IMG/VR virus record: IMGVR_UViG_3300016665_000396 | Coordinates: 1-59,164 of that record | DNA from: a virus | Lineage: Duplodnaviria; Caudoviricetes | Direction: 5' to 3' (one strand) | DNA length: 59,164 bases | Shown: piece by piece, positions 8,666 through 40,822 of the stretch | How positions within the stretch are numbered: position 1 is the first letter of the stretch | Layout: every line of letters begins with the position of its first letter | Notes under the pieces: model-generated | Told to the model about the DNA's origin: nothing | What the model saw: the letters and a program-made list of their open reading frames with translations, nothing else | Database searches by the model: none | Position numbers and translations under genes: made by a program

Positions 8666-10033
8666 TCAGTAAGCCTTGAACTTACCACTATCAGCGTTCA
8701 TCTTACAGGCAAGGTCGCCAGGACGAACATGATCCATTGTGCCACTCGGGGTCACAACCCAGAGCACCTTGGCACCATTAACCGCACTCATAACCGGAGC
8801 ATAACCGTCCGTGAGGATGATGATACCCGACCAACGACCACGATTCTTCGGGTTATTGACAAACTTAGCAACAGCGTCAAAGTCCGTGCCACCACAACGG
8901 GTCCGGAGCATCTGCGGCGTATTATCGCCCTTCTTCCAGACCTTATGTGAAGCCTCGTCAATCTCCGTGTCAAAGTGAAACACGTCAAGCTGCGTCAGGT
9001 TAGCAAGATTGCCAAGTTCCGAGAACAGCAGAGCGATATCCTCGTCTGCCATAGAACCCGACTGATCCATAAAGCAAGCGAAGTTAGCGATAAGCGGACG
9101 CTTAACGCCAGGATGAATGTAAGGCATCTTCTTATTGATGCGCTTGATCGTGCTATGACGATCCGTGCTACGGGCACGACCGATGAAGTTCCGAATGATG
9201 CTACGCCAATCAACCTCATTGGAAAGCATCTTGCGGATCATTTCCTGAATATGGGCAGGAACCGAACCCCATTGATTGCTACGATCTGCACGCTTGGCTG
9301 CACGATCAATAAGATCCTTCATCTTATCACGAAGTTCCTCGGCAGTCTCGGGATCAATGTCACCCCAGCTATCGTGATCGTCCATCGTGCCCATGCTATC
9401 AAAGACAGCCTGGATATCACCCTCACCATCACCCTGCTCGTCACGGATCTTCTTAAGCTCGTCAAAGTAATAATCCGAAGCCTGTAGAGGCTCGGCGTTA
9501 GCAATGAAATCCGCATAAGGATTGCTGGCGGGCTTCATGCTACCATCCTCCTGCTTCTCGAGAGGACGAACACCAGGGATAAGGCAAAGCTTTGGAAGCT
9601 TGTTTGCACCGATGATGGAGTTAATCGCAAGGTCAGTAGCCCAATTCCAAAGCATCTGATCTGCACCCTGCGCCACCGCACGATGGAAGATATGCGAGAA
9701 AACCATATGGTAAATCTCGTGGCAGATAACGCCCTTACGCTCCTCACGGGTTAGCTCTCGCATAAACTTGGGAGAGTAGCCCATGATAACATCATGGCGT
9801 CCACCATTCTTACGAACACCGATGTATGCCGTAGGGCAATTGGGATCGGCATCCTTCGTAATGTCCAGCGAGACACCACCGAGGAAAGGATCCTGCATAT
9901 AGAGTTCAAGGAAATCAAAATCAAACTCGTCAGGGCGACGAAGCTGATTATCAGGATCCGAAGCACCATCACGCTTGACAGGCTTGTCGTCGTTAAGACC
10001 ACCGGCACGGAGAACATTTTGCTTATTCATCAT
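8666..10033 (-). CDS. HExxH metallopeptidase-like/VWA protein (DUF2201-type)
   Basis: HEIYH and WNWATDLAIN; MIDAS elements DQSGS, GGTDF, LTDG. Confidence 0.88.
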   Translation of the reverse strand: MMNKQNVLRAGGLNDDKPVKRDGASDPDNQLRRPDEFDFDFLELYMQDPFLGGVSLDITKDADPNCPTAYIGVRKNGGRHDVIMGYSPKFMRELTREERKGVICHEIYHMVFSHIFHRAVAQGADQMLWNWATDLAINSIIGANKLPKLCLIPGVRPLEKQEDGSMKPASNPYADFIANAEPLQASDYYFDELKKIRDEQGDGEGDIQAVFDSMGTMDDHDSWGDIDPETAEELRDKMKDLIDRAAKRADRSNQWGSVPAHIQEMIRKMLSNEVDWRSIIRNFIGRARSTDRHSTIKRINKKMPYIHPGVKRPLIANFACFMDQSGSMADEDIALLFSELGNLANLTQLDVFHFDTEIDEASHKVWKKGDNTPQMLRTRCGGTDFDAVAKFVNNPKNRGRWSGIIILTDGYAPVMSAVNGAKVLWVVTPSGTMDHVRPGDLACKMNADSGKFKAY

Positions 10034-10389: not shown

Positions 10390-11661
10390 ATGTCGAATCT
10401 CGCTCTCCCCGTCAGCATGAAGTCGTTTCAGCGCATGGTCGCCTCCGTTTCGCCCGATATCACGGTTTGTGTCCGTGGTGGTCACGCTAAGGGCAAGTCG
10501 GAGGGTGTCTATCAGTCCGCTGCGCTTCGTTTCTCGGATTTCTACCGTGATGCCGCTAACTGCCGCCGTGCAGTTGAGGTTCTTGGTGCAGGTGTCCTTT
10601 CGCATGGTCGTGCCTCTAACAAGGTGAGCGAGTGGCGCTATGATCTCGGTATGCCGATCATTGAGCGTCGTCTTTCGCAAATGACTGAGGGTGATATCAT
10701 CGGTCTACCCATCCTTGAGGGTAACAGCACCACCTTCCGTCCCTGCGATTGGCTAATCCAGGCTTGTGAGTTCCCGGTCGTTCTCTTCCTTGACGAGCGT
10801 AACCGTGCGCTTGAGGGCGTTAAGCAGGCTGTCTTCCAGCTTGCGGATAGCAAGGCGTTCTATGGGCATCGCCTTCACCCTGAGACGATCATCGTTATTG
10901 CTGAGAATATCGGTGATGCTTATACGGTTAATCAGTCGGATCCTGCCGAGATCAGCCGTGCGGCTACTGTCCACCTTGATCCTACCAAGGAAGAGTTCCT
11001 TGATTATATCAGCGGTCGCTGCGATGGTGCGCTCGTTGATTTCCTCCGCCAGAATCAGCGGTTTGTGGAGCATGACGGCGCTTTCGAGCCTAATAAGAAG
11101 TATCCCGACCGTCGTTCGTGGGTGAAGCTTGATGGTGAGCTTACTCGCCTGGGTCTGTATGAGAACCCCGAGGATCATATGTTCTACGTCCTCACGGGTG
11201 CTTTCTGCGGCATTGAGGTTGCCGGTGCGTTCAAGAAGTTCTGCGCCGAGCGTGATCGTCAGGTGTCGTGTGAGGAAATGCTTGAGGATTGGGAGGCTGC
11301 GAAGCGTAAGCTTGGTCGCCTGTCGAATGAAATGTATGTCGAGCTTGTGAGCAAGATGGGTGATTGGCTCAAGAAGCATGACCTCAATGCGGATCAGGCT
11401 CTTGAACTTGCCCGCTTCATGCACGATGCTCCTCCTGAGCCGATGATGGCCATGTGGATGACTCTCCAGAAGAATATCAAGAATCTCACGAAGGTTCACC
11501 CGCACGTTGAGCAGCTTATGGTGCGCCGCACCACGGGTCAGGATACGTCGGATCTCAAGGTTCCGGCTAAGACTGCGAAGGCTGCAACGGCTCCTGCTGC
11601 TGGGGCGAATGTGCCCCCGGCTGCTGCCCCTGCGCCTCGTAAGCGTGGCGCTCGTCGCTGA
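10390..11661 (+). CDS. MoxR-like AAA+ ATPase
   Basis: Walker A GGHAKGKS, Walker B LFLDE, NRA; YPDRRSW; adjacent to the VWA gene. Confidence 0.88.
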   Translation: MSNLALPVSMKSFQRMVASVSPDITVCVRGGHAKGKSEGVYQSAALRFSDFYRDAANCRRAVEVLGAGVLSHGRASNKVSEWRYDLGMPIIERRLSQMTEGDIIGLPILEGNSTTFRPCDWLIQACEFPVVLFLDERNRALEGVKQAVFQLADSKAFYGHRLHPETIIVIAENIGDAYTVNQSDPAEISRAATVHLDPTKEEFLDYISGRCDGALVDFLRQNQRFVEHDGAFEPNKKYPDRRSWVKLDGELTRLGLYENPEDHMFYVLTGAFCGIEVAGAFKKFCAERDRQVSCEEMLEDWEAAKRKLGRLSNEMYVELVSKMGDWLKKHDLNADQALELARFMHDAPPEPMMAMWMTLQKNIKNLTKVHPHVEQLMVRRTTGQDTSDLKVPAKTAKAATAPAAGANVPPAAAPAPRKRGARR

Positions 11662-13807: not shown

Positions 13808-14332
13808 ATGGGTAAGATTAATCTATCTCGTGGGCTCTGGAAGTCTCAGATTCGTGTATTAGAAGAATATTGCGCCAGTAAGGGCTGGGAAGTGGAATAC
13901 GTTTCTCGTAAAGACCCTAACGCAGATTCTGCTATTATTCATAAAAACAAGTTGGTTATTAAAAAAGATAGGACAACCGAGCTAACGTTCTATGTCTTGT
14001 TACATGAGATTGGGCATATGATGCTATGCCAGAACAATCGTATGTATGACGAACGTTACAATGCTGTTTTTGAAAGTTTTGGAAGCGCAAGTATAACTCA
14101 TAAGGTAAAAAGAGTTGAGGAGGAGCTTGACGCATGGAAAACAGGATATAAGTTGTCTAAACGGTTGAAACTTTATGTGAACCGGCGTAGATTTGAACAA
14201 GTGAAGTCACGCTGCGTTACCACCTACCTTATGTGGGCAGTTGACCGAAAAATCAAGAAAGAAAAGAATGATGGAAGCACTAAAAATAGTCTCAATGGAA
14301 GAGGAGCCAGTATTAGAGAAAGCGCCGAGTAA
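13808..14332 (+). CDS. HExxH zinc-metallopeptidase-like protein (ImmA/IrrE-like)
   Basis: LLHEIGH plus downstream EEELDAW. Confidence 0.65.
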   Translation: MGKINLSRGLWKSQIRVLEEYCASKGWEVEYVSRKDPNADSAIIHKNKLVIKKDRTTELTFYVLLHEIGHMMLCQNNRMYDERYNAVFESFGSASITHKVKRVEEELDAWKTGYKLSKRLKLYVNRRRFEQVKSRCVTTYLMWAVDRKIKKEKNDGSTKNSLNGRGASIRESAE

Positions 14333-14999
14333 GATAGATCAAATCTACTTTGATTACGCCTCAACCAAAAGCCTTAAAACCCGTAATCAAATCGTAAAAC
14401 AAAATCAGGCTCTTGTTACTTACATAATCAACAAGTATTATAATAACAAGAAAGAATATATGCTCTTGAAGGAAGATATGATGCAGGAAGGCATCATAGG
14501 TCTTCTATCTGCTATTGAGGGATATAAGCCTGACCTCGGTTATCGTTTCTCTACCTATGCAACATGGTGGATCCGGCAAGCTATTAACAATTACCTTCTT
14601 AACGTAGAACCTATCATTCACGTTCCTTCTCATGTTAGAACTGCTAACAATAAGATTCAGAAGAAGCTACGGGAAGAGAATATAGTTTTACAGGATTATA
14701 TCAATAACGCCGATTCTAAAGAAAAAGAAGAAGACGGCTGTTCTGATAAGATGTTGCAATCGATTACAATGGCTAACCGCTCTAAGAATGTATGTTCTAT
14801 GGATGAACAGATCAAGAGTGGTCCCAATGGCGAAGGCAACAATACAATGAAGGATATGTTGGTTTCAGATGAAAATATTGAAACCCGATATGGAAACTCT
14901 GAGTTGGTTAGTCTTGTTAAAAATGCATTGTTGAACTTGTCTGAAAAGGAGAGATATATCCTTCTCCTACGTTTTGATGTTATAAAGGAGATACCATGA
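14268..14999 (+). CDS. Sigma70-family sigma factor, regions 2 to 4.1 (lacks 4.2)
   Basis: DMMQEGIIGL...GYRFSTYATWWIRQAI, IHVP; ends LSEKERYILLLRFDVIKEIP. Confidence 0.92.
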   Translation: MMEALKIVSMEEEPVLEKAPSKIDQIYFDYASTKSLKTRNQIVKQNQALVTYIINKYYNNKKEYMLLKEDMMQEGIIGLLSAIEGYKPDLGYRFSTYATWWIRQAINNYLLNVEPIIHVPSHVRTANNKIQKKLREENIVLQDYINNADSKEKEEDGCSDKMLQSITMANRSKNVCSMDEQIKSGPNGEGNNTMKDMLVSDENIETRYGNSELVSLVKNALLNLSEKERYILLLRFDVIKEIP

Positions 15000-15262
15000 A
15001 AAAAGAATATATTACCCTGGATGAAGGCATAGATTTCCGTAAGATAGCCGCTATTATGACAAAAGCGGGTTATAAGATGAACCATGCTACTGCTAGAAAT
15101 CAACTTATGTCAGCTCTGCAAAAGCTTCTTACAAATATAGTTAAGCAAACAGAGGTCAAGCCAGATCGTGAAAAGATTGAGGAAATGATGAATTCTCAAG
15201 AGATTCACAATGCCTTGGCTGATGTTTTGCATAGAGCATATCAAGAAATAAAAAAGGATTAA
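14996..15262 (+). CDS. Stand-alone sigma region 4.2-like HTH protein
   Basis: DFRKIAAIM...NHATARNQLMSALQKL; ATGA overlap and its own SD AAGGAG. Confidence 0.65.
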   Translation: MKKEYITLDEGIDFRKIAAIMTKAGYKMNHATARNQLMSALQKLLTNIVKQTEVKPDREKIEEMMNSQEIHNALADVLHRAYQEIKKD

Positions 15263-17109: not shown

Positions 17110-17144
17110 TTTACATTATAAAATATTCGTGTTAAGATGGTTGC
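17110..17144 (+). promoter_or_regulatory. Leaderless sigma70-type promoter of dnaE
   Basis: TTTACA-17-(TGt)TAAGAT-6 nt-ATG, no SD. Confidence 0.72.
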
Positions 17145-20100: not shown

Positions 20101-20828
20101 GTGATGGTAAGCTTATTCCATCCTTCGCTTCTCTTAAGCACGTTGGTATGACGGTTCTTAATGAGATTAATGAGTTCCGCCCTTACAACACGCTCGAGGA
20201 TTTGTTGTTTAATCCTAATGACACATGGCGTCATTCAAAGTTTAACAAGCGTGCATTGTCTACTCTAATCAAGCTTGAAGCTTTTGAGAGCATGGGATTG
20301 GTAGGTGAGGATAAGATGTTTAAGAACTATCGTCAGCTTCACCATGTTCTTGTAGATAAGGGTGATGATTTGAAGCGGGCTGTCAATAAAAAGAAGAAGA
20401 CTCATAAGGAGGATCTTGCTCGTATTATTGCAGAAGCCCAGGAACTACCAGATTGGGATCTAAAGGAAAAGGTAGAGTTTAGTCGTGCTCTATCTGGAAC
20501 GGTAGATATTGATCTCATTGTTACCCCAGAGATTGCAGAATATTTCCGAACCAGCGGTATTACTTCTATTGACGATTGGGAAGACGACGAGCAGTGGGTC
20601 TGGTGTATTGTTAAAAACGCCCGAGAAGCTAAGACCAAGACAGGTAAGGCTTATATGCGAATGAAGATTTACGGGGCATCCTGCACGGATATGGAGGTCT
20701 TCGTATGGAACTTCAAGGCGGGTAAGGATAAGCTAATCCCAGAGAATAGTCTTATACTTGGAAGGTTCAAGAAGAGTGATTTTGGTTTGTCTACCTTCTT
20801 TGGAACGTTGGAGATTATTAGCAAATGA
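17145..20828 (+). CDS. dnaE: DNA polymerase III alpha subunit (family C)
   Basis: PHP motifs HAHS/TDHG/DSHY; RGSAGGSL, FPDIDSD, KFDILGL, FNKSHA. Confidence 0.97.
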   Translation: MTTPKHFVNLHAHSTFSVGDGIGMPQDHIDYAVKNGADALALTDHGNMNGFSYQYLHAKKLKDKGVPFKALSGVEAYFIPSLSEWRKLKTAQDEAKAAEKEAKRIAANPDSIGDELASAKAELEEMAGVVKTDEDEEGGTVVENEDDSKSNKYRDPIQRRNHLVLLPKNTAGLKTLFRLVSNSYIDGFYKYPRIDLDMLKREAKGNIIALSACVAGADMHIIASHQTEPDYNKWGPNNVNFELIQSELKDMIYAFKDALGEENYYLEMQFNRLGAQHLKNFHIMEAAKRTNTNLVVTCDSHYSNPDHWRERELYKAMAWASKSKDGVDVSKLPQKVEELKCELYPKNAQQIWDSYKSYAAGYDCYNDDVVREAIERTWDIAHNQIGTVDFDRSVKLPVIEKLVPKTHLEDAIEKLGEGTDEDVLAFEELKRLAKIGLKNRKRDKDGEYIDRLVYELGVIKELKFAKYFLTYAKIMDIASKQMMIGNARGSAGGSLLSYALGITQVDPIRFGLLFERFLVRKKKGFPDIDSDFGDREKAVKLIGDYFGTENVISVSNFNQLQLRSLIKDVARLAGLPFDEINKYTGKIESEALAEAKKTPGFDRAGWVLTYEEAENNSASFRELMEKYPDFEKTIRVLFKQMRNVSRHAGGVIITSNPRDNMPIIKSGDVLQTPWPEGLNARHLEDFGLLKFDILGLGTLRMFEECIRKILRKTMPNRKYITFDMIKKWFDDNLHPDVNALDDMKVFKNVYWDSRYAGIFQFVQQNVQKFMAEMKPKNVTDIAIATSIFRPGPLGIGADKLYLNNRKNPSKIVYKHPLLEEVLADTSGLIVFQEQLQLIYHKLAGVPLEDTDAVRKAFTKKDLSNKEKAAKEREAMREDFANRCLATNNIAKEISYSIFDEMEKFVAYSFNKSHAVAYAITSYQCAWFLTYYPEEWITTYIDYCATEKGKQAGKEDPKAIALSEAKALGFTIGKPDVNLSEKEYTIRDGKLIPSFASLKHVGMTVLNEINEFRPYNTLEDLLFNPNDTWRHSKFNKRALSTLIKLEAFESMGLVGEDKMFKNYRQLHHVLVDKGDDLKRAVNKKKKTHKEDLARIIAEAQELPDWDLKEKVEFSRALSGTVDIDLIVTPEIAEYFRTSGITSIDDWEDDEQWVWCIVKNAREAKTKTGKAYMRMKIYGASCTDMEVFVWNFKAGKDKLIPENSLILGRFKKSDFGLSTFFGTLEIISK

Positions 20829-21136
20829 CGTTATACCGTTGCGCTTATCAAAATGAAAATAGTCCGAGAGGAGTATTAATTCATCGTGTTGAAAGAGATC
20901 CGGAAGGCAAGTGGGTGAGAGCAGCGGGAATGGATACAGTAAGCAAGATTGCTTATAATGGAGTTGTTCTCAAGTTGGAAGTAGCTAGATTGACAAGTCC
21001 ATTTATATCAATCAATTGGAATGAAAATAAAACATCAGAATATCACATATGTCTTTATCAAGATTATACGGTGGCTATAGCAGATGAAAAGTGGAGCAAA
21101 TATTTCGTTCCGATAGAAACAAAAACAGAAGAATGA
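20825..21136 (+). CDS. Hypothetical protein
   Basis: ATGA-coupled to dnaE. Confidence 0.65.
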   Translation: MTLYRCAYQNENSPRGVLIHRVERDPEGKWVRAAGMDTVSKIAYNGVVLKLEVARLTSPFISINWNENKTSEYHICLYQDYTVAIADEKWSKYFVPIETKTEE

Positions 21137-21213
21137 TAAAGAATTAAGGCTGGAAGGGTAATCTTTCCAGCCTTATCTAATTAAGAATACACTATTACGA
21201 AGGTATATCTCAC

Positions 21214-22215
21214 ATGAAACTTACAAAAGATTTGCAAGCCCTTTTAGACGGCGAAGTTAAGAGAGCAGTTAAAGATACCCTTGAAGCAAAAGGATTAACT
21301 CCAGAGAAACCTAAAAAGTTAACGGAGGCAGCTAAACCTTCTGTAACTCAAGTTCTTACGGGAGCAGTAAAAACTGTTGTAAATACCCTTAAAGAAGGTT
21401 TTACTCTTATTCCAAAATCCCATCTCATGAAGACGGAGAAGCTTTCAGATGCTACAAAAACAGCTCATGATAAGCTTTATAAGGGCTATGTAGAGGCATT
21501 TAATAAGGTTGCTGCTGGATTAGTTGCAGCAGACAGAAATGAAGTTAAGAGCACCGCTAGTTCTTATCGTTCTCTTAAAACAGATGAAACATATAACTTC
21601 AATGGCGTAAAGCTTCACGAGCTATATTTTGCAAATATTTCTGATGTTGATAGTGAAATCAGAGTAGACAGTCTTCCATACATGAGATTATCACGTGATT
21701 GGGGAACATTTGAAGCTTGGCAAGAAGATTTTATGGCTGCTTGCATGGCTTCCCGTAACGGCTGGGGTATGACAGTTTGGGAACCATATCGTAACGTTTT
21801 TATGAACGTTGTTGTTGATAGTCACGACAAAGATATTCCTCTTGGTTGTATTCCAGTTATCGTTATGGATATGTGGGAACATGCTTATTTCAAGGATTAC
21901 GGAATTGATAAAAAGGCTTATCTTTTTGCAATGATGAAAGAATTGAATTGGGACGTTATTGAAGCACGTATGCAAGTATGTGATAATTCTAAGATTGATT
22001 TAATCTATAAGATTGAACCACTTACAAATCCAAAGCCTGACGCAATGCTTTCTGCTGCTGCTGAACAAGCACAAACAGTTCCGATTACACAGGTTCAACC
22101 TCCAGCACAAAAGCCAATAACAACTGGATTGGGTAATCAAGCAACAACTCCACTTTCCCCATCTACACCAGCCGCTCCAGCTACACAAGCACCTGGCGTC
22201 CAAACAAGAGGATGA
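21214..22215 (+). CDS. Fe/Mn superoxide dismutase-family protein with N- and C-terminal extensions
   Basis: HDKLYKGYV, LHELYF, DMWEHAY. Confidence 0.88.
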   Translation: MKLTKDLQALLDGEVKRAVKDTLEAKGLTPEKPKKLTEAAKPSVTQVLTGAVKTVVNTLKEGFTLIPKSHLMKTEKLSDATKTAHDKLYKGYVEAFNKVAAGLVAADRNEVKSTASSYRSLKTDETYNFNGVKLHELYFANISDVDSEIRVDSLPYMRLSRDWGTFEAWQEDFMAACMASRNGWGMTVWEPYRNVFMNVVVDSHDKDIPLGCIPVIVMDMWEHAYFKDYGIDKKAYLFAMMKELNWDVIEARMQVCDNSKIDLIYKIEPLTNPKPDAMLSAAAEQAQTVPITQVQPPAQKPITTGLGNQATTPLSPSTPAAPATQAPGVQTRG

Positions 22216-22216
22216 T

Positions 22217-23074
22217 ATGAAGAGATTAAAAGAAAATACATTGATGGTTCGTCATAGTGGTAAACTTGGTTATACCAATCGTTCAAATCGTCCTGTAAGC
22301 ATTCCTGCTGGAACCTTATATGAACATGTTCGTCTTATTGACAAACAACACTCATATGTTCGTATTAATAACGTTCTATATGTTGCACACAATAAAGACT
22401 TGGTATTAAAAGAACAAGTTGTTCAAGCACAGTATCCTCAACAAATGGCAGATTTTGCGCCGGTCCCACAAAAGAATGTTTCTTTAGATCAGGTTGTTGA
22501 CAAATATATTGTTCGCTATGAAAGAGAGAGTATTCCTCAAACTGGTATGCCTGGACCTGGACCTACTCCTTCCGCAGCGACGCCGCCAGAAACATTAGCT
22601 CAACAACCAAGTCCATCTTCATTAGAAGAACGTCAATTGCGTAGTTTAAGTGCTATTTTGTTTGAGCAAGATGCACCAGAAGAAGAACCACCAGCCGATG
22701 AACCTCCACCAGATGAAGGCGATACAGGCGATGAAGGTGGAGGCGGAGGACCACCACCAGAGGGTCCACCAGTAGTCAATACACCAAAGATTAACCTTAA
22801 TGATTTTACTCGCAGCATCGCTCGCCTTATTAACAACTATGATGCTCTATTAAATCCACGTTCTATTATCCTTAATCGTGTTGAAGAATACATCAGAACC
22901 AATTACGATGAAAGAACAGCAAAAATGTTCATTCAAATAATGGAAAGAAATTATGGATTACATCCTACAAATACGGAGTATACTGGACAATCAGGAGGCG
23001 GCGAATTCCCAACACCATATTCCTTCAACGCTGGTGGAGAAGGTGGACAACTTGGTGGAGGTGGCGGCGAGTGA
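22217..23074 (+). CDS. Hypothetical Pro/Gly/acidic protein
   Basis: In operon with SOD. Confidence 0.75.
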   Translation: MKRLKENTLMVRHSGKLGYTNRSNRPVSIPAGTLYEHVRLIDKQHSYVRINNVLYVAHNKDLVLKEQVVQAQYPQQMADFAPVPQKNVSLDQVVDKYIVRYERESIPQTGMPGPGPTPSAATPPETLAQQPSPSSLEERQLRSLSAILFEQDAPEEEPPADEPPPDEGDTGDEGGGGGPPPEGPPVVNTPKINLNDFTRSIARLINNYDALLNPRSIILNRVEEYIRTNYDERTAKMFIQIMERNYGLHPTNTEYTGQSGGGEFPTPYSFNAGGEGGQLGGGGGE

Positions 23075-23077
23075 TCA

Positions 23078-23377
23078 ATGACTAAACCTGTCGGTAGACC
23101 TAAAAAAATTCTTCCTAAAGAACTATTAGAGCTAAGATTTACCAAGGAAGAAATGTTACATTTGAAGAAAGAACTATTCAGACACGGTTTAACAGCACAT
23201 CAATTCATGGGATATCTTATACAACAGATATCTATTAACGATCAAAGATTAGTTGAGTTGCTAAATGAAGCAACACAATATAAGAAACAAAGAATATTGG
23301 AGGGCAAAGAAGAACACGTTGATGCGGAAACTCTATATCGTATGATAGAAGAAGAAAATAAAAAACTTCAGAAGTGA
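23078..23377 (+). CDS. Small putative DNA-binding protein
   Basis: GRPKK start followed by an RHH-like pattern. Confidence 0.55.
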   Translation: MTKPVGRPKKILPKELLELRFTKEEMLHLKKELFRHGLTAHQFMGYLIQQISINDQRLVELLNEATQYKKQRILEGKEEHVDAETLYRMIEEENKKLQK

Positions 23378-23384
23378 GGATTAT

Positions 23385-23741
23385 ATGAAATTCTTAAAGA
23401 AATTATTGGGTGTTGTAGAAGCTACTGAAACAAAGATTGTAACAGTAGAGAGTGGTGATTCTGAAGAGTTAACAAAGAGATTGAGGGAGTTTGATAATCA
23501 AGCATTACAAAGTCAAATAAAAACATTAGAAAAAGTGATTGGATTCCTTGCACAAAAGGTGGAAGTTCAATCAGAAGTTATACGCCGACAATCTGATGCT
23601 ATCAGGGAAATACATACAACTATAGAAGAAATCGCAAACGTGTTTGAAACTGTCCAAAAAGTCACAATGATGGATAAACCACCAGTTGATGACGATGATG
23701 ATGAAGATGAATCAGAGGGTCCAAAGAAATATCTAAACTGA
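23385..23741 (+). CDS. Coiled-coil protein with acidic tail
   Basis: Heptad pattern; SD GAGG. Confidence 0.65.
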   Translation: MKFLKKLLGVVEATETKIVTVESGDSEELTKRLREFDNQALQSQIKTLEKVIGFLAQKVEVQSEVIRRQSDAIREIHTTIEEIANVFETVQKVTMMDKPPVDDDDDEDESEGPKKYLN

Positions 23742-23742
23742 T

Positions 23743-24168
23743 ATGGAAGACATAAATACAAATAACGGTATTAAAAAGTTTTTTGAGAATAATTGGCTAA
23801 CGTTGCTTCTTATATTAGGTGCAGCGTTAGCTTTTTACTTTGGTTTTCAAAGAATATCTGAACTCAATCAAAGAAACTCTGAAATGAATCAGATGCTCCA
23901 AGATCAAAGGGATACTCTAAACGATAACCATGAAACCATCAATAATCTTAATAAAACTGTTGTTGATGAAAGAGCTGCAAGAGAAGAGTTAAGACGAGAT
24001 TATGAAACCCATATGGAAGAAGTTCGTTCTAATCTTCAAAAGCAAATAGATGCAATCCGTCGTGGCAGAACTGTAAGAACAAATGAACTTACAAACAATC
24101 CTTCGGAACTTGTTAACAGCTATAACTCCACATTCGGATTTGGAAGAACTGCGAGTCCTGCGCCATGA
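23743..24168 (+). CDS. i-spanin-like protein
   Basis: N-terminal TM followed by a long coiled coil. Confidence 0.6.
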   Translation: MEDINTNNGIKKFFENNWLTLLLILGAALAFYFGFQRISELNQRNSEMNQMLQDQRDTLNDNHETINNLNKTVVDERAAREELRRDYETHMEEVRSNLQKQIDAIRRGRTVRTNELTNNPSELVNSYNSTFGFGRTASPAP

Positions 24169-24740
24169 TTAAAAAACTTATATCTTCCATCTTATTAGTT
24201 TCTATATTGTTTGGTTGCACTACAGGAAATCTCCCAGGAGGCTCTACAACGGCTGTAGACAATCAAGGCTTCCCTGATATACCTCCATTAGAATTAGCAC
24301 CTGTAGAAGCCGTTGAGGTGCCTACTGTAGAACCTAATCCAAATCCAACACCGGCTCCATTAGCTTTAACTCTTAATCAAGAATTTAGAGCACCATATCC
24401 AGGTATATTTTTCAGCAATGAACAGGCGGCATATATTATTGCCGAATTAGAAGCTTATCAGCGTCGTGTATCTGTGTCTATGGAAAGTATGAGAGACGGT
24501 TATCAGTTAAGATTACGTCATGAGACTGAAGAGTTAAGACTTCAGATTAATAGCGATAGAAATCGATTTCGCATTATAATAGCCGCAAGGGATGCAGAGA
24601 TTGCTAGACTGTTGGCACAAACAGAAAGATTTGCAAACCGTGGGGCAGAATTCCCATGGGAAGCTGTCTTGGTTGGTGCTGGCGGATTATTGATTGGAGT
24701 TGTTGGTGGTTTCTTAATGGGTTTTATTGCTGCTAATTAA
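24165..24740 (+). CDS. Spanin-like lipoprotein with C-terminal TM
   Basis: Lipobox LFGC, Pro-rich linker, coiled coil, Gly-rich C-terminal TM. Confidence 0.6.
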   Translation: MIKKLISSILLVSILFGCTTGNLPGGSTTAVDNQGFPDIPPLELAPVEAVEVPTVEPNPNPTPAPLALTLNQEFRAPYPGIFFSNEQAAYIIAELEAYQRRVSVSMESMRDGYQLRLRHETEELRLQINSDRNRFRIIIAARDAEIARLLAQTERFANRGAEFPWEAVLVGAGGLLIGVVGGFLMGFIAAN

Positions 24741-24763
24741 TACTTAATACTCAAAGGACATAT

Positions 24764-25024
24764 ATGAAAGTACCTCTTTTAAAACAATCTGATGGTAGAC
24801 CATCTGCTTCATTCACAATGATGATTATAGCATTTACCGTAGTTACCCTATGGCTATTTGTTTCTATAGTAGAAGAAGCATTCGGAATTCAAATCAGAGA
24901 ATTCTCAGGTTCTGAAGCAATGAGCTACTTTACACCAATTGCAACCCTTTACTTCTCCCGTAGATGGACAGATAGAAATAATGCAACCGCTGAAACAACC
25001 AGCCAAGAGAAAGCAGAAGAATGA
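24764..25024 (+). CDS. Holin-like small membrane protein
   Basis: Hydrophobic segments and charged tail, next to the spanin-like genes. Confidence 0.5.
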   Translation: MKVPLLKQSDGRPSASFTMMIIAFTVVTLWLFVSIVEEAFGIQIREFSGSEAMSYFTPIATLYFSRRWTDRNNATAETTSQEKAEE

Positions 25025-25025
25025 T

Positions 25026-25910
25026 ATGAAAATTTCAATCAATGAACTTAAGTCCCTAATTGCTGAAGCCGTTAATGAACAAGTTGCAGCACAACAAGGC
25101 AGAAGCTCACAACGTCGTGATCAAGCTGCTTCTCTAATCTCTGCTACAAATCTTCGTAATGCAGAAGCTGTTCTTAAACTTTTAGCACGCAAGTCTGAAG
25201 GTGAAATCTCCCCAGATCAAAAGCGTTATCTAAACATGCTTAAGGGCAAAACTTCCAAAGAAGACCTTAAGGTTGTTCTTGATAAACTTTATGTTGATGG
25301 TCTTAACGGCAAGTCCATTCTTGGTTATTCAGCCATGACACCAAACAAGCTTAAGGATCTCATAAACAATATGAAGTCTGCCAAGGCTGCTGTTGGTAGC
25401 GAAGAAACTCCTTCTGACGTAGAAGAGGTTGAAGCTGATGAAGAAGAAGCTGGTAAAAAATATCAGACAAAGGCTATGACCGGCGGCGCTTCTCTTGAAG
25501 ATATCGCTAAAGAACTTGGCGTCTCTGTTCAAAGAGCAGCAGAACTTGAAAAGAAAGCAATGGAACGTTTTAAGAAAGCCGCCGTTTCTCGTGGTGGACT
25601 TGAATCTTTGGAAAGTCTCAAGGCATTGGCAGTTCCAGCAGCTAAACAATTCGTTGAACGTCTTGGTGAAGTAGGCGTTGAAGATTTCGTAGTAGACGTT
25701 CTTAAAATGCCAAGAGCAACAGAAAAAGATATTGAACTTCTTGTTGATCTTCAAGCAATGGTAGAAGAAGGCGCAGAAGAAGAGGCAGCAGCGGAACTTG
25801 TTAGATTGTATCTTCGTGGTTCCAATCTACCAGTCATGGCTCGCTTCACAGATGCACTTAAAGCAAAAGAAACAGCAGGTAGACCTTCTCTCGTTCGTAA
25901 ATTCTTCTGA
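25026..25910 (+). CDS. Protein with sigma4.2-like HTH and LxxLIxE leader
   Basis: MKISINELKSLIAE; SLEDIAKELGVSVQRAAELEKKAMERF. Confidence 0.75.
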   Translation: MKISINELKSLIAEAVNEQVAAQQGRSSQRRDQAASLISATNLRNAEAVLKLLARKSEGEISPDQKRYLNMLKGKTSKEDLKVVLDKLYVDGLNGKSILGYSAMTPNKLKDLINNMKSAKAAVGSEETPSDVEEVEADEEEAGKKYQTKAMTGGASLEDIAKELGVSVQRAAELEKKAMERFKKAAVSRGGLESLESLKALAVPAAKQFVERLGEVGVEDFVVDVLKMPRATEKDIELLVDLQAMVEEGAEEEAAAELVRLYLRGSNLPVMARFTDALKAKETAGRPSLVRKFF

Positions 25911-26005
25911 TAAATCAAGGGGTTAGAAATTTAAATTTAATCCCTTGACTTTCGTTCCCAGGTATGGCATTATAATATATAACTGCTACTGACCCTGGAG
26001 AAACG

Positions 26006-26782
26006 ATGAATACCATGAAGATCAATCCCGAGAACGTTAATCCCCTTTTCGCCCGCCTTCGTGATCGTGCAAAGCTTTCCGAGTGGCTGGTTAGCTATTA
26101 TTTTAGCGCAGAGAAGACGGATCGTGCGTGGTATAATCCTAACGTGAATGCAGAGAACGTTCTGGCTTATATTTCCGATCCCCGCAGTGGCTTCCCGCTC
26201 TCCCCGGCTGATGTGTGCGATGATTGGGCTATTAAGAAGTCCCTTAAGTCGGATTTTGCCGCTATTGATTTTGATGCTGTCGCTGCCAAGCCTGTGAAGG
26301 GTAAGAAGGAAGCGATCTATAACACCGGAGACGTTTCCCTTAAGAATATCGGTAACGAGCTTCATGGCATTACTGCAATGATGGCTCTTAAGCTTGAAAC
26401 CTCTGGCACCGCAAAGATGCAGCTTATGACGGGCAAGAACCGTGATGGTATGGAAGCTGCTATGGAGCGTATCTCCCAGGCGCACCGTGAGGTTGCAGAC
26501 GCCTACGCTACGCTTCTCCTTTCCTGCAATAGCGTTAACGCTTTCCTTGATGCAATCAAGAAGGCTTATCAGATTACGCCGCTGGAAATGGAAGATATTA
26601 AGACTAACCGGGAGCTTAAGATGATCCAGTTCCTTATGAGTCAGGATGCTACGGATATTGCCGATTACCTCCGTGGGGATATTCTTAAGCAGGATAACCG
26701 GATGAAGAGTTTTCAGACGATGATTAGCAAGCACCTCTACCCGAGCAAGAAGCGTGGTCGTCCGAAGAAGAATGCGAACTGA
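26006..26782 (+). CDS. Early protein with sigma4.2-like HTH and basic GRP tail
   Basis: SLKNIGNELHGITAMMALKLETSG; C-terminal KKRGRPKK; TTGACT promoter upstream; GC-rich codons. Confidence 0.7.
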   Translation: MNTMKINPENVNPLFARLRDRAKLSEWLVSYYFSAEKTDRAWYNPNVNAENVLAYISDPRSGFPLSPADVCDDWAIKKSLKSDFAAIDFDAVAAKPVKGKKEAIYNTGDVSLKNIGNELHGITAMMALKLETSGTAKMQLMTGKNRDGMEAAMERISQAHREVADAYATLLLSCNSVNAFLDAIKKAYQITPLEMEDIKTNRELKMIQFLMSQDATDIADYLRGDILKQDNRMKSFQTMISKHLYPSKKRGRPKKNAN

Positions 26783-26784
26783 TT

Positions 26785-27108
26785 ATGCCAGATCCAGAAT
26801 TACTTAATCACCCATTATATAGTTCTTTCCCAGAGGGCTGGACTACCCGTGCGGTAGGTTCGGTCCTTTTTGTCTTTAAAGAGAACATAAAGATAAGAAT
26901 AGAAGAGTATAGCTATCTTACCATAGACGTTTTAAAACTTAAGCATGATCATGGGATCGTCGTCACTCTTGAAGAAGAAGAGGACGGCGATTTTGCTTTG
27001 GTGTCATGTAAAATCCAATCTGAAAATGGTAAACATGATATCAAACAATGCTATGATATATGTTTGAAGATAGATCGCTTCTTATCGGGAATACAAATAA
27101 ATGACTAA
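26785..27108 (+). CDS. Hypothetical protein
   Basis: ORF in operon. Confidence 0.65.
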   Translation: MPDPELLNHPLYSSFPEGWTTRAVGSVLFVFKENIKIRIEEYSYLTIDVLKLKHDHGIVVTLEEEEDGDFALVSCKIQSENGKHDIKQCYDICLKIDRFLSGIQIND

Positions 27109-27712
27109 AATTATTACAAGTGAAGATTCGGATTTTGAGTTAGACCCAGAAAGTTTAACTGATTCAACCGATATTTCTGAAAATATTAAAACAAATAGAT
27201 TGGAAGCAATCAGAGATTTAGAAGCTTTACTTGAAAATTCCGAATCCGCAAGTAATGTCAGTAACATTACACAACAAACAAAAGAAGAAGCTAAGATTGA
27301 GTGTGTTATAAAGTTTGAAAGTCGTTTAACAAAAAATATGTTTGTAACAAATGTATATTTGTCAGGCTTAAATCAAACAGTAATTGAACGCAATATAACA
27401 GAAATAGAATTAAATGGCGAAGATCAAAAGCTAATTCGTCTGTTTTCTTTTTATCAAAATAACATATACAAACAAAAGCGCACAAGATTTGGCGCTACAA
27501 GAATTTTTCTACAAAAGAAAGTTATTAGAAGAAGAAAAAGAAACGTCCTTAGCAAAAATGATGTTTTAATAACAAAGTTTTATGTAAAGGTCAATGGTAA
27601 AAGGTTAAATCTAATTGATTTGGACGTGTATGATTGGAAAGTAAATGAAATGAAATATGCTTTTGACAACAATCGTTCCACAATTAAGATTCTTTTAGTA
27701 AGAAGCAAATAA
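27101..27712 (+). CDS. Hypothetical protein
   Basis: ORF in operon. Confidence 0.65.
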   Translation: MTKIITSEDSDFELDPESLTDSTDISENIKTNRLEAIRDLEALLENSESASNVSNITQQTKEEAKIECVIKFESRLTKNMFVTNVYLSGLNQTVIERNITEIELNGEDQKLIRLFSFYQNNIYKQKRTRFGATRIFLQKKVIRRRKRNVLSKNDVLITKFYVKVNGKRLNLIDLDVYDWKVNEMKYAFDNNRSTIKILLVRSK

Positions 27713-27733
27713 TTAGGTTTTGAGGAAATTCAT

Positions 27734-28219
27734 ATGACATTATCAATTCGTAAAGCTTTTCAAGAAGAACGCCGTAAAAAATACCTTTCTGGATTAATCA
27801 ATGAAGCAATTGTTCAAATCCTTTCTGAACAAGAAGCTGCCGCTGCTCCTATGGGAATGCCTGCTCCTGCTGCTCCACCAGCCGATGTTTCTGCGCCACC
27901 AGCACCAGAAGCACCAGAACCAGCACAACCAAAAGAATTTACTGTTGATGATATGATTGAACGCCTTAACGTTATTCGTGGCGGTCGTTCCTTCACAGAT
28001 CCAGAAGTATATGGACAATTAGTTACATTCTTTAAGACACTATCCGATGAACAAAAAGCTTCAATGGAGAAGTTTTTAATGGATCTTGGTAAGATTGTTA
28101 TCAACGTCAATGAACAAGAAGCTCCTCCTTCACCAGAAGCTTCTGCTGCTCCACCAGCTACACCAGCCGCTCAACCACAAGTTCCTCCGGCTCCTACAGC
28201 GCCAGCACCAGCAGCTTGA
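27734..28219 (+). CDS. Pro/Ala-rich hypothetical protein
   Basis: TAATTA motif and SD GAGG; LINE and ILSEQ motifs. Confidence 0.7.
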   Translation: MTLSIRKAFQEERRKKYLSGLINEAIVQILSEQEAAAAPMGMPAPAAPPADVSAPPAPEAPEPAQPKEFTVDDMIERLNVIRGGRSFTDPEVYGQLVTFFKTLSDEQKASMEKFLMDLGKIVINVNEQEAPPSPEASAAPPATPAAQPQVPPAPTAPAPAA

Positions 28220-28227
28220 TTAATCTC

Positions 28228-28262
28228 TTGAAATAATCAAAATCATAGAGTATACTAATATC
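28228..28262 (+). promoter_or_regulatory. Leaderless sigma70-type promoter
   Basis: TTGAAA-17-TATACT-6 nt-ATG. Confidence 0.75.
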
Positions 28263-28571
28263 ATGGCTGAACAAACTGAATTGCCGAAGTTTTACTGGCG
28301 GGAACAACGTCAGGTTAACGTCCATGATATTCCCGGTATCCGTTATCTCCCTTGTATGCCGGTAGTCGGTTCCTCTCACGGTGTAACAAGAATTGAAAAT
28401 GGCACCTTTATTCAGTATCTTCGTGATGTTGAGGGTGGTCCCCGTGGTGAAGATAAAGCATGGGTCTTTGCCCTGGCAGAAAAGCCGGAAATTGAGTTTG
28501 TAGTCCCGGCAGCTTGTGCCCCTTATCTCTGGAAAGCAAAGCATAAGGTTAGTCCGCTCCGAAAGCGTTGA
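28263..28571 (+). CDS. Hypothetical early protein
   Basis: Own promoter and terminator. Confidence 0.7.
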   Translation: MAEQTELPKFYWREQRQVNVHDIPGIRYLPCMPVVGSSHGVTRIENGTFIQYLRDVEGGPRGEDKAWVFALAEKPEIEFVVPAACAPYLWKAKHKVSPLRKR

Positions 28572-28642
28572 AAATACCCCGGCAAATCCGGGGTTTTTTA
28601 TTACTTGAATTTTTCCCATTAATCTGTTATTCTATTAACATA

Positions 28643-29722
28643 ATGACGAATCGCAATCACCTCCACACCGATAATACCCGCCGTTATTGCAGCCGTTGTG
28701 GCGATGCTCTCACCGATCCCGCTTCCCGTGAGTGCGGTGTCGGTCCCGTCTGCCGTAAGAAGGATACCCACCTCTACGCTAAGACCATTGTTGCTAATTT
28801 TGGGCTTGCGACCGTCCGTGCTATGAGTGTCCGTGAGGAAATGCTCGCTCCGGAGGTTGTTAGCGTTTGGAAGGCGGCGGTTAAGCGTCTCCTTAAGTCT
28901 GCGGAAAAGGTTGCTAACGTTACCGACGATATGACGATTATGCAGCGCACCGGGGCGGATCTCCGTGAGGTTGTCCGTGCCTGTGATCTCGTCTGCTCCT
29001 ACGAGAATCCTACCCCCATCGTTCGCTCCACCGTTGTTGACGTTGTGCGTGCCTGTGGCTATGTCGGTCTTGCGGCGGTCCTCTCCGGTGAAGCTTCTAC
29101 CTCGCCCAGCCGTGTTTGGTTTGAGAATGGTCGGGTCTATATGAGCGGGCTTGGCAACAAGTCTGGTTGGGCTGCGATGCGCCAGATCCCCGGTGTGCTT
29201 ACTCCGAAGTATCGTGGGGATCGTGCTCCCTACTCTGTCCCGGCTGTCCAGGCTGCAAGCTTCCTTGAGAACGTTCGGCGCTACTGGCCGATGTATGAGG
29301 GCGATATCGCTGCGATTGCTACCGAGGCTGCTACCTGGGTTCAGAATAATCAGGCTGTTGCCCAGGCTGCTGCGGCTTCTACCGCTCCGGTTCATGTGTT
29401 CGGGATTACCACCCGCTCGCAGGATTTCGTTGTCACCTTCCCGTGGGTTCGTAATGCGAACATGAATGGTTTCATGGCGCAGCTTAAGACCATCCCCGCT
29501 AATCAGCGCAACTATAATCCTGTCACGAAGTCGTGGTCGTTCACCATCGCCAACCTTGATCGTGTGACCGAGATTGCCCGCACGTCGGGTATCTTCGGTG
29601 AGGTTCGGAAGGTTGATACTGGCGAAGCTACTCCGGAGGGCACCTACAATGCTCGTTCGGTTGGTCGTCGCTATCCTAACCTGGGTCGTGCTGCTTACTT
29701 CCGTGGTGGCTGGCGTCTCTGA
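28643..29722 (+). CDS. Zn-binding (DUF6011-like) early protein with HARP-like C-terminus
   Basis: CSRCGDALTDPASRECGVGPVC; RNYNPVTKSW; ATG at 28643 after TTGAAT-17-TATTCT. Confidence 0.7.
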   Translation: MTNRNHLHTDNTRRYCSRCGDALTDPASRECGVGPVCRKKDTHLYAKTIVANFGLATVRAMSVREEMLAPEVVSVWKAAVKRLLKSAEKVANVTDDMTIMQRTGADLREVVRACDLVCSYENPTPIVRSTVVDVVRACGYVGLAAVLSGEASTSPSRVWFENGRVYMSGLGNKSGWAAMRQIPGVLTPKYRGDRAPYSVPAVQAASFLENVRRYWPMYEGDIAAIATEAATWVQNNQAVAQAAAASTAPVHVFGITTRSQDFVVTFPWVRNANMNGFMAQLKTIPANQRNYNPVTKSWSFTIANLDRVTEIARTSGIFGEVRKVDTGEATPEGTYNARSVGRRYPNLGRAAYFRGGWRL

Positions 29723-29776
29723 TATCAGCTAAAATCTAAACAAACTTAACCCTGGCTCTGCCGGGGTTTTTTGTTT

Positions 29777-30673
29777 TTAAAAATCTAAACCACCGTCGTC
29801 AAAATCGCCCTTTTGTATTAACTTCATAATCGTTTCATCGTATCCAAGCTTTATACCGGCTTGGATTTTTTCTTTATCAAAGTCCATGCTATTTTGATTT
29901 GGGGATACGCTTGGAATGAATACGTTGATCTTTACGTTTTCCAGCGTCTTGGCGGCTCTTAAAACCGTGTAGCAGTCCATAAGGTAAACTTGGTCGCTCA
30001 TTATTTCAGAAGCCCGTAAAGCGACTCTGGGGGCGCTTGTAAGGTTAGTAGCTGGCAGAACACGATCTCTGATAGCAATAGGGGAAGTAAGAACAACGTC
30101 TATTTCATCTGGACGTTCTTTAAGTGCTTCATAGATTGGAATCTGGTGTCGGATACCACCATCTACCCATTTCTCTCCATATAGATCAATAGGTTCAAAG
30201 ACTAATGGCAAGTGGCTGGATGCAAGAATAAACTCTTTAATAGCTGGATTTTCTCCGTCTATTACGGTGTATTCAGAGTTATTGAGGTTTACGCAACCTA
30301 CAGTAAGTTTAACGCCGCTTGAAACTATCTTGCTAGCATCAAGAAATTTGTCTACAATATTCTTTAGAGGTTGTCCGCTGTGTAGAGAACCCTTCCACAT
30401 TGAATAGAGATAGTTTATAGGCTTAACAGGATTCCAACGTGTGTAGATATCATCCGAGGTGTTTATGTTGTTCCAGATATCTAATAGCCCGTTTATAGAA
30501 TGAGGTTGTTCCATTGGGGAGTGCATAGCAATCCAAGAAGCGTTAAGAGCACCTACAGATATACCATGAACAGTATTCCAAGTTCTTCCCGCTTCTAATA
30601 ACGCTTGTATTGCACCAACTTGATAAGCACCTCTTGAGCCACCACCACTTAATACAAGCGCCCTTTTAACCAT
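29777..30673 (-). CDS. Patatin-like phospholipase
   Basis: LSGGGSRG, GISVG (GxSxG), DGG. Confidence 0.92.
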   Translation of the reverse strand: MVKRALVLSGGGSRGAYQVGAIQALLEAGRTWNTVHGISVGALNASWIAMHSPMEQPHSINGLLDIWNNINTSDDIYTRWNPVKPINYLYSMWKGSLHSGQPLKNIVDKFLDASKIVSSGVKLTVGCVNLNNSEYTVIDGENPAIKEFILASSHLPLVFEPIDLYGEKWVDGGIRHQIPIYEALKERPDEIDVVLTSPIAIRDRVLPATNLTSAPRVALRASEIMSDQVYLMDCYTVLRAAKTLENVKINVFIPSVSPNQNSMDFDKEKIQAGIKLGYDETIMKLIQKGDFDDGGLDF

Positions 30674-39994: not shown

Positions 39995-40204
39995 TCACCA
40001 GGGAAAATCATCGTGCAGACCATCATTGAGCTCTGCATCAACCGCAAACGTCCACGGCGACACATGACGGTCGGCGGTCGCAGCCGCCGACGCCATATCC
40101 TCAAAACCGTTGCACTCGGGGCACGCTTCCCAATGCCAATGGATGCCCTCGTCCTGAACCATCACACGACCCTCACCCGAACACTTCTGGCAATGCATCA
40201 TCAT
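39995..40204 (-). CDS. Small Zn-finger protein
   Basis: CQKCSGEG...CPECNG. Confidence 0.7.
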   Translation of the reverse strand: MMMHCQKCSGEGRVMVQDEGIHWHWEACPECNGFEDMASAAATADRHVSPWTFAVDAELNDGLHDDFPW

Positions 40205-40213
40205 TCTCCCTTA

Positions 40214-40504
40214 TCAGTTGGAAAGGCTATTCACAAGGAAAGAGGCAAGCTCACGAACACCAGCACTATCCGGATTATAAGCACCGATACGGACCATGCC
40301 CCACCGAGCATAAACGTAAAACGTCTCACCCGTTTCCTCGCAAACGAAACCGACCTCCATAGCGGAATAACCGCTATCGGTGTCGCCCCAGCCTTCCATG
40401 CGCCCAGCAGCGAACGTGGAAAGCACATGATCCATATTCACATTGTCAACGTGGAGTGCAAGGGACATTCCACAAATATCAACCGGACGGGCAGCGAAGT
40501 TCAT
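40214..40504 (-). CDS. Hypothetical early protein
   Basis: GC-rich ORF in the early cluster. Confidence 0.65.
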   Translation of the reverse strand: MNFAARPVDICGMSLALHVDNVNMDHVLSTFAAGRMEGWGDTDSGYSAMEVGFVCEETGETFYVYARWGMVRIGAYNPDSAGVRELASFLVNSLSN

Positions 40505-40549
40505 TTCTTTTCTTTCTTTTAGCTTTAGATTAGGAAGTTTATAGCTTAA

Positions 40550-40822
40550 TCAATAACGCTCGTTATCGTAGACCTGCGAGGCAAGCTCTGCGAGCGCAGC
40601 CTGACGGCGCTCCTCGGCGCTACGAAGGTCATTAGCCCTACGGCAGCAGGGACAGCGGACCATGCGATATCGGCTCACACCGAAACCACGTCCATCACCC
40701 TGCGACCAACCCTCACGCACGTCCGAAGGGACATACGAGAACACCGCAGCGCAGAACTCGCACGGACGCTCAACACGGACGCCACGAACACGACGGGGAG
40801 CAGCAACAACCTTGACCGACAT
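40550..40822 (-). CDS. Zn-ribbon protein
   Basis: CEFC...CPCC; TTGAAA-17-TATTCT promoter. Confidence 0.7.
   Translation of the reverse strand: MSVKVVAAPRRVRGVRVERPCEFCAAVFSYVPSDVREGWSQGDGRGFGVSRYRMVRCPCCRRANDLRSAEERRQAALAELASQVYDNERY

Follow-up and report, generated by a model that had tools for sequence, protein, structure and literature searches.

Sigma factors made of two separately encoded subunits are known from T4 (gp55/gp33), SPO1 (gp33/gp34), Bacillus subtilis (SigO–RsoA), and Tn916 (Sig7–Sig8), and their halves are encoded together and are about one domain in size (bioRxiv 10.64898/2026.10.01.756105). T4 also offers the example of diverse internal proteins which have only a capsid targeting sequence in common (Virol J 2010;7:356, PMC3012670). 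Here, we analyze a pair of adjacent phage genes, hereafter A and B, which can be compared with both of these systems, as well as with AT-hook proteins and with the small helix–turn–helix (HTH) regulators of phages and plasmids. The pair is found in the IMG/VR record IMGVR_UViG_3300016665_000396, a 59,164-b stretch of viral DNA analyzed over its full length (the window), whose CheckV completeness of only 16% indicates that it represents only part of a phage genome measuring several hundred kb. According to the account that we favor, and to which we would give an even chance of being right, A and B are paralogous DNA-binding regulators from a new, clade-wide family that combines an HTH of the sigma-70 region-4.2 type with a C-terminal GRP (AT-hook-like in B), and the two genes are under separate control.

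As in the split sigma systems, the sigma factor of this phage comes without its -35-reading part and is accompanied by separate small proteins, and A and B bear the missing kind of HTH; unlike in those systems, the open reading frame (ORF) adjacent to the sigma gene is not region-4-like, and A and B are encoded ~10 kb away and are much larger, their association with the sigma being a proposal. With respect to region 4.2 of sigma-70 factors proper (RpoD, RpoS, RpoH, and FliA), the two-helix HTH and the next helix align at the profile level, but the HTH of A and B is internal rather than C-terminal, regions 2 and 3 are missing, extra domains and a GRP/AT-hook are present, and the scores fall below cut-off. 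The tails of B-type proteins display the R-G-R-P core with basic flanks that characterizes the AT-hook (Pfam PF02178), but as a single hook at the extreme C-terminus that in B scores 14.5 bits against the required 17.4, and A keeps the GRP without the basic flanks, hence not as a canonical AT-hook. Weak HTH matches also recall small phage and plasmid regulators (phrog_686, "HTH DNA binding protein", E 6.5e-4; KorA/TrfB, PF16509, E 0.1), which are however short single-domain proteins whose matches here cover 23–42 residues only. Lastly, as with the internal proteins of T4, unrelated proteins of this phage share one short conserved N-terminal sequence; unlike in T4, this sequence is a ~20-residue helix dissimilar to annotated targeting sequences, A lies in a string of replication genes, and packaging and cleavage of the proteins that bear it are hypothetical. 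The features of the pair are the following, in coordinates of the window:

25026–25910, plus strand: gene A, encoding 294 amino acids (aa; P0001), A-type member of the family
25026–25097, plus strand: leader of A, residues 1–24 (MKISINELKSLIAE...), a predicted helix, with M1, K2, I3, L8, and I12 identical throughout the 16 sequences aligned
25479–25586, plus strand: HTH of A, residues 152–187, sigma-70 region-4.2-like by Pfam, hhalign, and PDB profiles
25878–25886, plus strand: GRP of A (G285, R286, and P287 invariant in the A-family alignment)
26006–26782, plus strand: gene B, encoding 258 aa (P0002), B-type member without leader
26324–26431, plus strand: HTH of B, residues 107–142, region-4-like by hhalign and PDB profiles
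26747–26773, plus strand: AT-hook-like tail of B, KKRGRPKKN (Pfam AT_hook E 0.032, 14.5 bits, cut-off 17.4)

Both ORFs lie where an earlier note drawn from the letters of this DNA, the sequence-only reading, had placed them. The ORF list lets A begin further upstream, with a TTG (24939), but its start was set at the ATG of 25026 because this codon lies 2 nt past the stop of the upstream ORF and because the M-K-I start is kept in 16 of 16 aligned A orthologues. From its N-terminus, A consists of an amphipathic leader (modeled as a helix over residues 5–24), a helical N-domain, an acidic linker, the region-4.2-like HTH, a helical C-domain, and the C-terminal GRP, when B is laid out as an N-domain with a W-x-x-[RS]-Y-[YF]-F motif, the HTH, a helical C-domain, and the terminal AT-hook-like tail. 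The motifs on which the sequence-only reading had relied are indeed present and are invariant or nearly so in each family: TG..SL..I..EL.G corresponds to TGGASLEDIAKELGVSVQRAAELEKKAM in A (residues 152–179) and to TGDVSLKNIGNELHGITAMMALKLETSGT in B (residues 107–135), and the GRP (residues 285–287 and 251–253, respectively) is invariant in both families. In the B-type tail, R250, G251, R252, P253, and K255 are invariant, and the AT_hook profile is matched by 9 of the 19 members (E ≤ 0.1).

Compared directly, A and B are marginally similar (BLASTP E 0.049, 25% over 119 residues). When the comparison is made between profiles (16 sequences for the A type, 19 for the B type), they align over 269 columns from the N-terminus to the GRP (hhalign 97.6%, E 3.1e-12). 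Aligned jointly with MAFFT, 30 sequences stay collinear all the way from the helix at the N-terminus to the GRP, which is invariant, as are P, D, I, G, and F positions. By these alignments, A and B are homologous over their full length, in line with the mutual similarity that had been claimed for them.

With regard to the nature of the HTH, the Pfam profile Sigma70_r4 (PF04545) matches A over residues 154–183 (E 4.3e-4, 20.2 bits; 22.6 bits in a six-frame scan). A search with this profile had been proposed by the sequence-only reading, and its outcome is mixed: it matches all 16 A-type proteins (best E 2.5e-5) and, among the 19 of B type, 4 (best E 3.4e-4), but A itself does not reach the gathering cut-off of 24.1 bits and B has no match. 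Other HTH families are each found in at most one A-type member (KORA in 1/16). When the profiles of the two families are searched against PDB sequences, sigma region 4 (SigA, RpoD, RpoS, and RpoH) heads both lists and accounts for 7 of the 8 chains listed with A and 12 of the 14 listed with B, at E-values of 0.08–1.1. An independent region-4 profile, made of the C-terminal 87–89 residues of Escherichia coli RpoD, RpoS, RpoH, and FliA, aligns to A over 35 columns (A 152–186; hhalign 90.9%, E 1.2e-6) that correspond exactly to region 4.2, and to B over 84 columns (B 54–145; 86.4%, E 4.7e-6). Region 4.1 falls outside the alignment of A, at the place where an acidic low-confidence linker precedes the HTH, and is spanned by that of B, but with 12% identity and through a loop that is disordered. 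In the joint-profile search of cluster representatives (see below), the weakest matches cover the HTH positions only; among 34 proteins scanned, which mostly come from this weak tail, 23 are bona fide Sigma70_r4 proteins, 4 also with region 2, and KORA is found in 4. No Sigma70_r2 match was obtained for A or B (E ≤ 10) or for 35 family members (E ≤ 0.1). On our reading of these profile comparisons, the HTH of both A and B is of the sigma-70 region-4.2 type, as previously proposed for the two of them, and stands outside the Pfam family by that family's own threshold. The AlphaFold2 (AF2) models have a mean pLDDT of 68.3 for A and 75.7 for B, and they show helical N- and C-domains with good confidence (pLDDT 80–93 for B); these two domains gave no match in Pfam, PHROGs, or Foldseek for A and B, nor in VIA-align for B, and the ESM Atlas returned no usable match for A or B.

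The family to which A and B belong is un-annotated, without a name in Pfam or PHROGs. Homologues at E ≤ 1e-3 number 51 for A and 45 for B, all metagenomic and none functionally named, and a joint-profile search of 1.84 billion cluster representatives yielded 145 matches at E ≤ 1e-3, 101 at E ≤ 1e-10, and 44 at E ≤ 1e-30. Its members appear to be built on one architecture, in which helical N- and C-domains flank a central HTH and a GRP/AT-hook tail ends the protein, the leader standing first in many of them. To follow the family across related phages, two flanking genes serve as landmarks:

24764–25024, plus strand: small membrane-protein gene, shortly upstream of the family gene in every related locus examined, among them the seven distant ones (7 of 7)
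27734–28219, plus strand: Pro/Ala-rich protein gene, ~1 kb downstream of the family gene in 7 of 7 distant loci

In close relatives (loci L002–L005 and L019–L023), A and B occur in tandem among the same neighbors, from DnaE to a DUF6011 gene. Most relatives have a single family gene at this site, when the lineage of the window has both types. In L006 (52% GC), the site holds one B-type gene, which encodes 303 aa and bears the leader, and no A-type gene is found in this 64.8-kb record; in L025, it holds one A-type gene, with no B-type gene within the following 2.2 kb. In the seven distant loci (L027–L033; contigs of 36.6–461 kb from further clades, whose family protein is 25–36% identical to B), the order membrane-protein gene, single family gene, and Pro/Ala-rich gene is found in 7 of 7. 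Judged from this gene order, the family is a fixed syntenic core gene in a clade of uncultured giant (~230–460 kb) aquatic phages. In a FastTree phylogeny of 89 rows (midpoint-rooted, local support), A belongs to a clade of 8 (support 100) and B to one of 11 (support 98), with the root between the two. Because single-copy relatives carry either type and because the two types form separate clades in this tree, the pair is best read as two deep family lineages side by side at one site, and we reject a simple, recent tandem duplication. The description of A and B as a tandem pair consequently holds insofar as they are adjacent and homologous, but not in the sense of one gene simply duplicated.

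Some rearrangements and neighbors at this site may also be mentioned. In the near-identical loci L019 (5118–5444) and L020 (5568–5894), a second copy of the gene found at 26785–27108 of the window, 53% identical to it, is inserted between the membrane-protein gene and A, the normal position of this gene being after B. In the 230-kb relative L028 (6045–7559), two signal-peptide proteins are encoded directly upstream of the membrane-protein gene and look like lytic transglycosylases, as judged by reading their sequences. The Pro/Ala-rich protein has a conserved core, "DDMI..LN.IRGGRSFTDPEVYG".

The separate control of A and B is suggested by the 95-nt spacer between them, which holds a hairpin and a promoter-like site:

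25915–25948, plus strand: hairpin directly 3′ of A, with 13 pairs of which 4 are G-C, and a 3′ arm that overlaps the -35 of B
25945–25973, plus strand: promoter-like site of B, TTGACT, 17 nt, TG-n-CATTAT (sigma-70-type with extended -10), conserved in a nine-locus alignment
25997–26000, plus strand: ribosome-binding site of B, GGAG, within a (C)TGGAG block found in 8 of 9 aligned loci

Across the nine aligned loci, whose A proteins are 61–90% identical to that of the window, the -35 core, the TG, and the key positions of the -10 are conserved in 9 of 9, when the flanks vary. Such promoter-like sites are not enriched over 20500–30000 as a whole (25 found vs. 20.4 ± 4.8 in shuffles). L023 is the exception to the (C)TGGAG block, and the start of B is there further downstream. 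From this conservation, a host-type (sigma-70-like) promoter of its own is well supported for B, and the TTGACT promoter that the sequence-only reading had assigned to this gene is in this respect upheld. The arms of the hairpin (AAGGG...CCCTT) are visible in most of the nine loci; since it is followed by no clear T-run, a terminator at this place is put forward only tentatively.

The two genes also differ in composition, as had been noted from the letters: the GC content at third codon positions (GC3) is 0.25 in A and 0.56 in B, when most genes of the window range from 0.15 to 0.35, and the contrast between A and B persists in relatives. Because B keeps GC-rich codons, its composition suggests that it was brought in, or retained, from a GC-richer relative. 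Besides B, a minority of high-GC3 genes (0.54–0.60) is found at 8666–10033, 10390–11661, 28568–29722, 40013–40522, and 40550–40822. Several of them have their own TTGAxx or TG-extended -10-like site, some with a terminator, in a moron-like arrangement; sites similar to that of B precede the gene at 10390, the DUF6011 gene, and the gene at 40822 on the minus strand. For the DUF6011 gene (28568–29722), the listed TTG start is probably wrong, as the listed 5′ end contains a terminator-like hairpin (28576–28594) and a promoter-like site (28605–28633), which are followed by an ATG at ~28643 (MTNRNHL...).

Gene A, for its part, is the final gene of a tightly spaced plus-strand string that starts at DnaE, and this spacing suggests that A is cotranscribed with the string. 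The putative start of the string is the following site, which precedes DnaE, as does a terminator-like hairpin:

17110–17138, plus strand: promoter-like site before DnaE, TTTACA, 17 nt, TAAGAT (1 match vs. 0.03 expected)

The replication and nucleotide genes of the window comprise DnaE, a DnaB-like helicase, a UvsX-like recombinase, an exonuclease, and a ribonucleotide reductase. On the same string, the gene at 21214–22215, kept in all relatives seen, encodes a 333-aa product with the C-terminal domain of Fe/Mn superoxide dismutases (E 5.9e-19), a weak match to the N-domain, and an N-terminal extension of ~80 residues.

The sequence-only reading had further described a split sigma factor and, together with A and B, a total of at least three free sigma-4-like modules. 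Two features of the window are concerned:

14241–14999, plus strand: phage sigma factor, group-1/2-like (Sigma70_r2 1.4e-14), ending after region 4.1
14996–15262, plus strand: ORF of 88 aa that overlaps the stop codon of the sigma gene (ATGA) and is kept in relatives, beside this gene or close to it

The sigma matches the SigA/RpoD/RpoS profiles of the PDB at E 6e-21 and is aligned only to the end of region 4.1. It ends at the same place in the relatives L011, L012, and L039 (record G005); among relatives, one sigma is 92% (search) or 93% (alignment) identical to that of the window and one 53% (search) or 49% (alignment). As judged from these sequences, the truncation is real and conserved across the clade, and the ORF at 14241–14999 is indeed a region-2 polypeptide without region 4.2, which substantiates the split as far as the sigma is concerned. 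The count of three modules is not supported: the small ORF, which is 88–105 aa long in relatives (160 nt from the sigma gene in G005/L039, behind an extra 157-aa gene in L012), has no sigma match in the PDB and no detectable similarity to region 4 (hhalign probability of 0.7% with the region-4 profile; with the A/B family, 0.4%), so that only its position would designate it as a third module. In a six-frame scan with Sigma70_r4, gene A is the only match of the window (E ≤ 1), and the region-4.1 stub of the sigma itself is the only match of G005. A complex prediction between residues 130–252 of the sigma and 140–294 of A gave no answer (score of 0.06 against a mark of 0.32, without controls) and speaks neither for nor against an association.

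The leader of A, which the sequence-only reading had pointed out, is confirmed and recurs on other ORFs. In the form M-K-[ILV]-[TS]-x-x-x-L-K-x-[LM]-I-x-E, it is common to many unrelated small ORFs; a profile of its 25 residues was found at 11 places in five records, 6 of which by construction, and the new ones are small unrelated ORFs. Leader-bearing ORFs include, beside A (25026–25097), an ORF cut by the end of the window (59118–59162), L009 1198–1578 and L010 1291–1590 (both on the minus strand), and runs of consecutive small genes in L025 (4844–6932) and L040 (1190–2896). The leader is also found on distant B-type proteins; it is therefore ancestral to the family and was lost in the B gene of the window. 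As an ancestral N-terminus of B-type proteins, it does not divide a "virion-type" A from an "early-type" B. The virion assignment of A likewise loses its footing, since the leader was its sole basis, when A closes the DnaE string and no virion gene was recognized among the window ORFs scanned.

How these observations should be interpreted depends on what the HTH and the tail are for, and a number of points weigh against our preferred account of A and B as DNA-binding regulators. No score reaches a curated threshold and B itself has no Pfam HTH match; the E-values of the PDB profile search are weak; and, in both AF2 models, no other ordered part has lower confidence than the HTH (pLDDT ~43–66). 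Because fold searches found nothing, with no Foldseek match to the PDB at E ≤ 0.001 for the models of A and B and a best VIA-align Z of 4.8 (none ≥ 5) for the model of B, the HTH fold stands without structural confirmation. The neighbors, moreover, are not transcriptional (membrane proteins, a lipoprotein-like protein, and, by sequence reading, the transglycosylase-like exported proteins of L028), and region-4-type HTHs also occur in proteins other than transcription factors. Could A and/or B instead be free region-4.2 modules that dock on the beta-flap of RNA polymerase together with the truncated sigma, and provide alternative -35 specificities over time? The sigma of the window, like that of relatives, extends no further than region 4.1; G005, which is 81% complete at 320 kb, shows nothing beyond the region-4.1 stub in the Sigma70_r4 scan; the match of A, unique in the window, covers exactly region 4.2 and begins where the sigma ends; the small ORF beside the sigma gene is not detectably region-4-like; and the two-subunit sigma factors named above provide a precedent. 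The small ORF, however, is conserved beside the sigma gene and coupled to it by an ATGA, which makes it the more natural partner by position, A and B (~260–300 aa) differ from a bare region 4 by an AT-hook and two further conserved domains, and the family gene never adjoins the sigma gene in the records seen; as both are core genes of the clade, their co-occurrence is uninformative. We therefore find this docking quite unlikely, and give but a slender chance to its extension into a modular sigma, in which the A/B family would supply region 4.2 in trans, lineages with two members could switch promoter class, and a leader-bearing module might travel with the DNA. Region 4 and the flap are established targets of phage proteins such as AsiA of T4, and the likeness to region 4.2 would also be that of an anti-sigma or decoy by which A or B draws the partners of the host sigma-70 (flap tip, activators) away. 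This likeness is the only argument for such mimicry, which we hold to be highly improbable: region 4.1, which contributes much of the flap-binding pocket, is unaligned in A (35 columns), the conserved AT-hook points to DNA rather than to protein targets, and neither Pfam nor PHROGs shows a resemblance of A or B to a known anti-sigma family.

Other explanations retain DNA as the target of A and B and place them outside transcription. They might be DNA-binding proteins of replication, partition, or genome architecture (KorA/ParB-like or nucleoid-type) that are coexpressed with the replisome, as the position of A at the end of the DnaE string, the richness of the window in replication genes, and the weak KorA (TrfB) match of A (E 0.1), with KORA in 4 of the 34 tail proteins, would allow; AT-hooks, besides, are typical of architectural DNA-binding proteins. 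Yet A-type proteins match Sigma70_r4 in 16 of 16 cases against 1 of 16 for KORA, no replication-specific domain was found in A or B, and their conserved immediate neighbors are the membrane and Pro/Ala-rich proteins rather than parts of the replisome, from which this alternative strikes us as rather improbable. The leader raises the question of whether its bearers (A and, in other lineages, proteins of the B type) enter the capsid by means of it and are ejected with the DNA as DNA-bound internal proteins. Its occurrence on otherwise unrelated ORFs and the runs of leader genes in L025 and L040 parallel the internal proteins of T4, and the combination of an HTH with an AT-hook would be fitting for a protein that is packed together with DNA. 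The leader also contains an I/L-x-E, which we take to be the kind of site cut by a T4-type prohead protease. Against packaging, A sits in the DnaE string, within a replication and nucleotide-metabolism region; 10 leader-bearing or neighboring ORFs gave no meaningful virion PHROG (the best named match is a terminase small subunit, E 0.025); a P-loop kinase-like ORF of L010, an unlikely capsid cargo, has a similar N-terminus by reading; and no prohead protease gene was seen, in records that are mostly fragments. On balance, we regard packaging as unlikely.

If A and B are DNA-binding regulators, as we favor, they would most likely bind the AT-rich DNA of the phage in a sequence-specific manner, through the HTH in the major groove and through the RGRP tail in the minor one, and would act as transcription regulators or as accessory factors of promoter recognition. 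In the lineage of the window, A would close the transcription unit of the DnaE string, when B would open the next one from its own extended -10 promoter, and the timing of the two types may differ accordingly with their control.

With regard to the phages concerned, no cultured relative was matched among 50,697 phage records, either by blastn of 24000–29000 or by tblastn of B, and every match of DnaE to cultured phages has <60% identity. The records are 9–20% complete, with the exception of G005 (locus L039). No RNA data covering 24700–27200 were listed; two doubtful "RNA?" runs are probably DNA and consist of contigs only. Related sequence is present in freshwater, estuary, lagoon, and reservoir metagenomes (14 studies). 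Among 185,579 species genomes, the sole match of the B family is a 1,580-b contig (L026) of an uncultured Polynucleobacter metagenome-assembled genome, with a B that is 89% identical; this contig could be a host hint or a binning artefact, and is too short to serve as host evidence. Elsewhere in the window, the minus strand encodes a patatin-like phospholipase (29777–30673, E 1.5e-26) and a DUF2201 metallopeptidase/VWA protein (8666–10033), the latter adjoining an ATPase gene (10390–11661).

From the perspective of the biology of these phages, the family described here is a core, position-fixed gene of a widespread freshwater/estuarine giant-phage clade, for which the assignment of an HTH and an AT-hook may provide a handle on transcription control. 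Because the sigma of the same phages comes without its -35-reading end, the family is also an obvious candidate for a trans-acting part of promoter recognition, and, were the modular sigma to prove true, it would lengthen the short list of split sigma factors. If the family instead turned out to consist of ordinary regulators, the locus would still show two deep alleles of a core gene standing next to each other, with different promoters and different codon usage.

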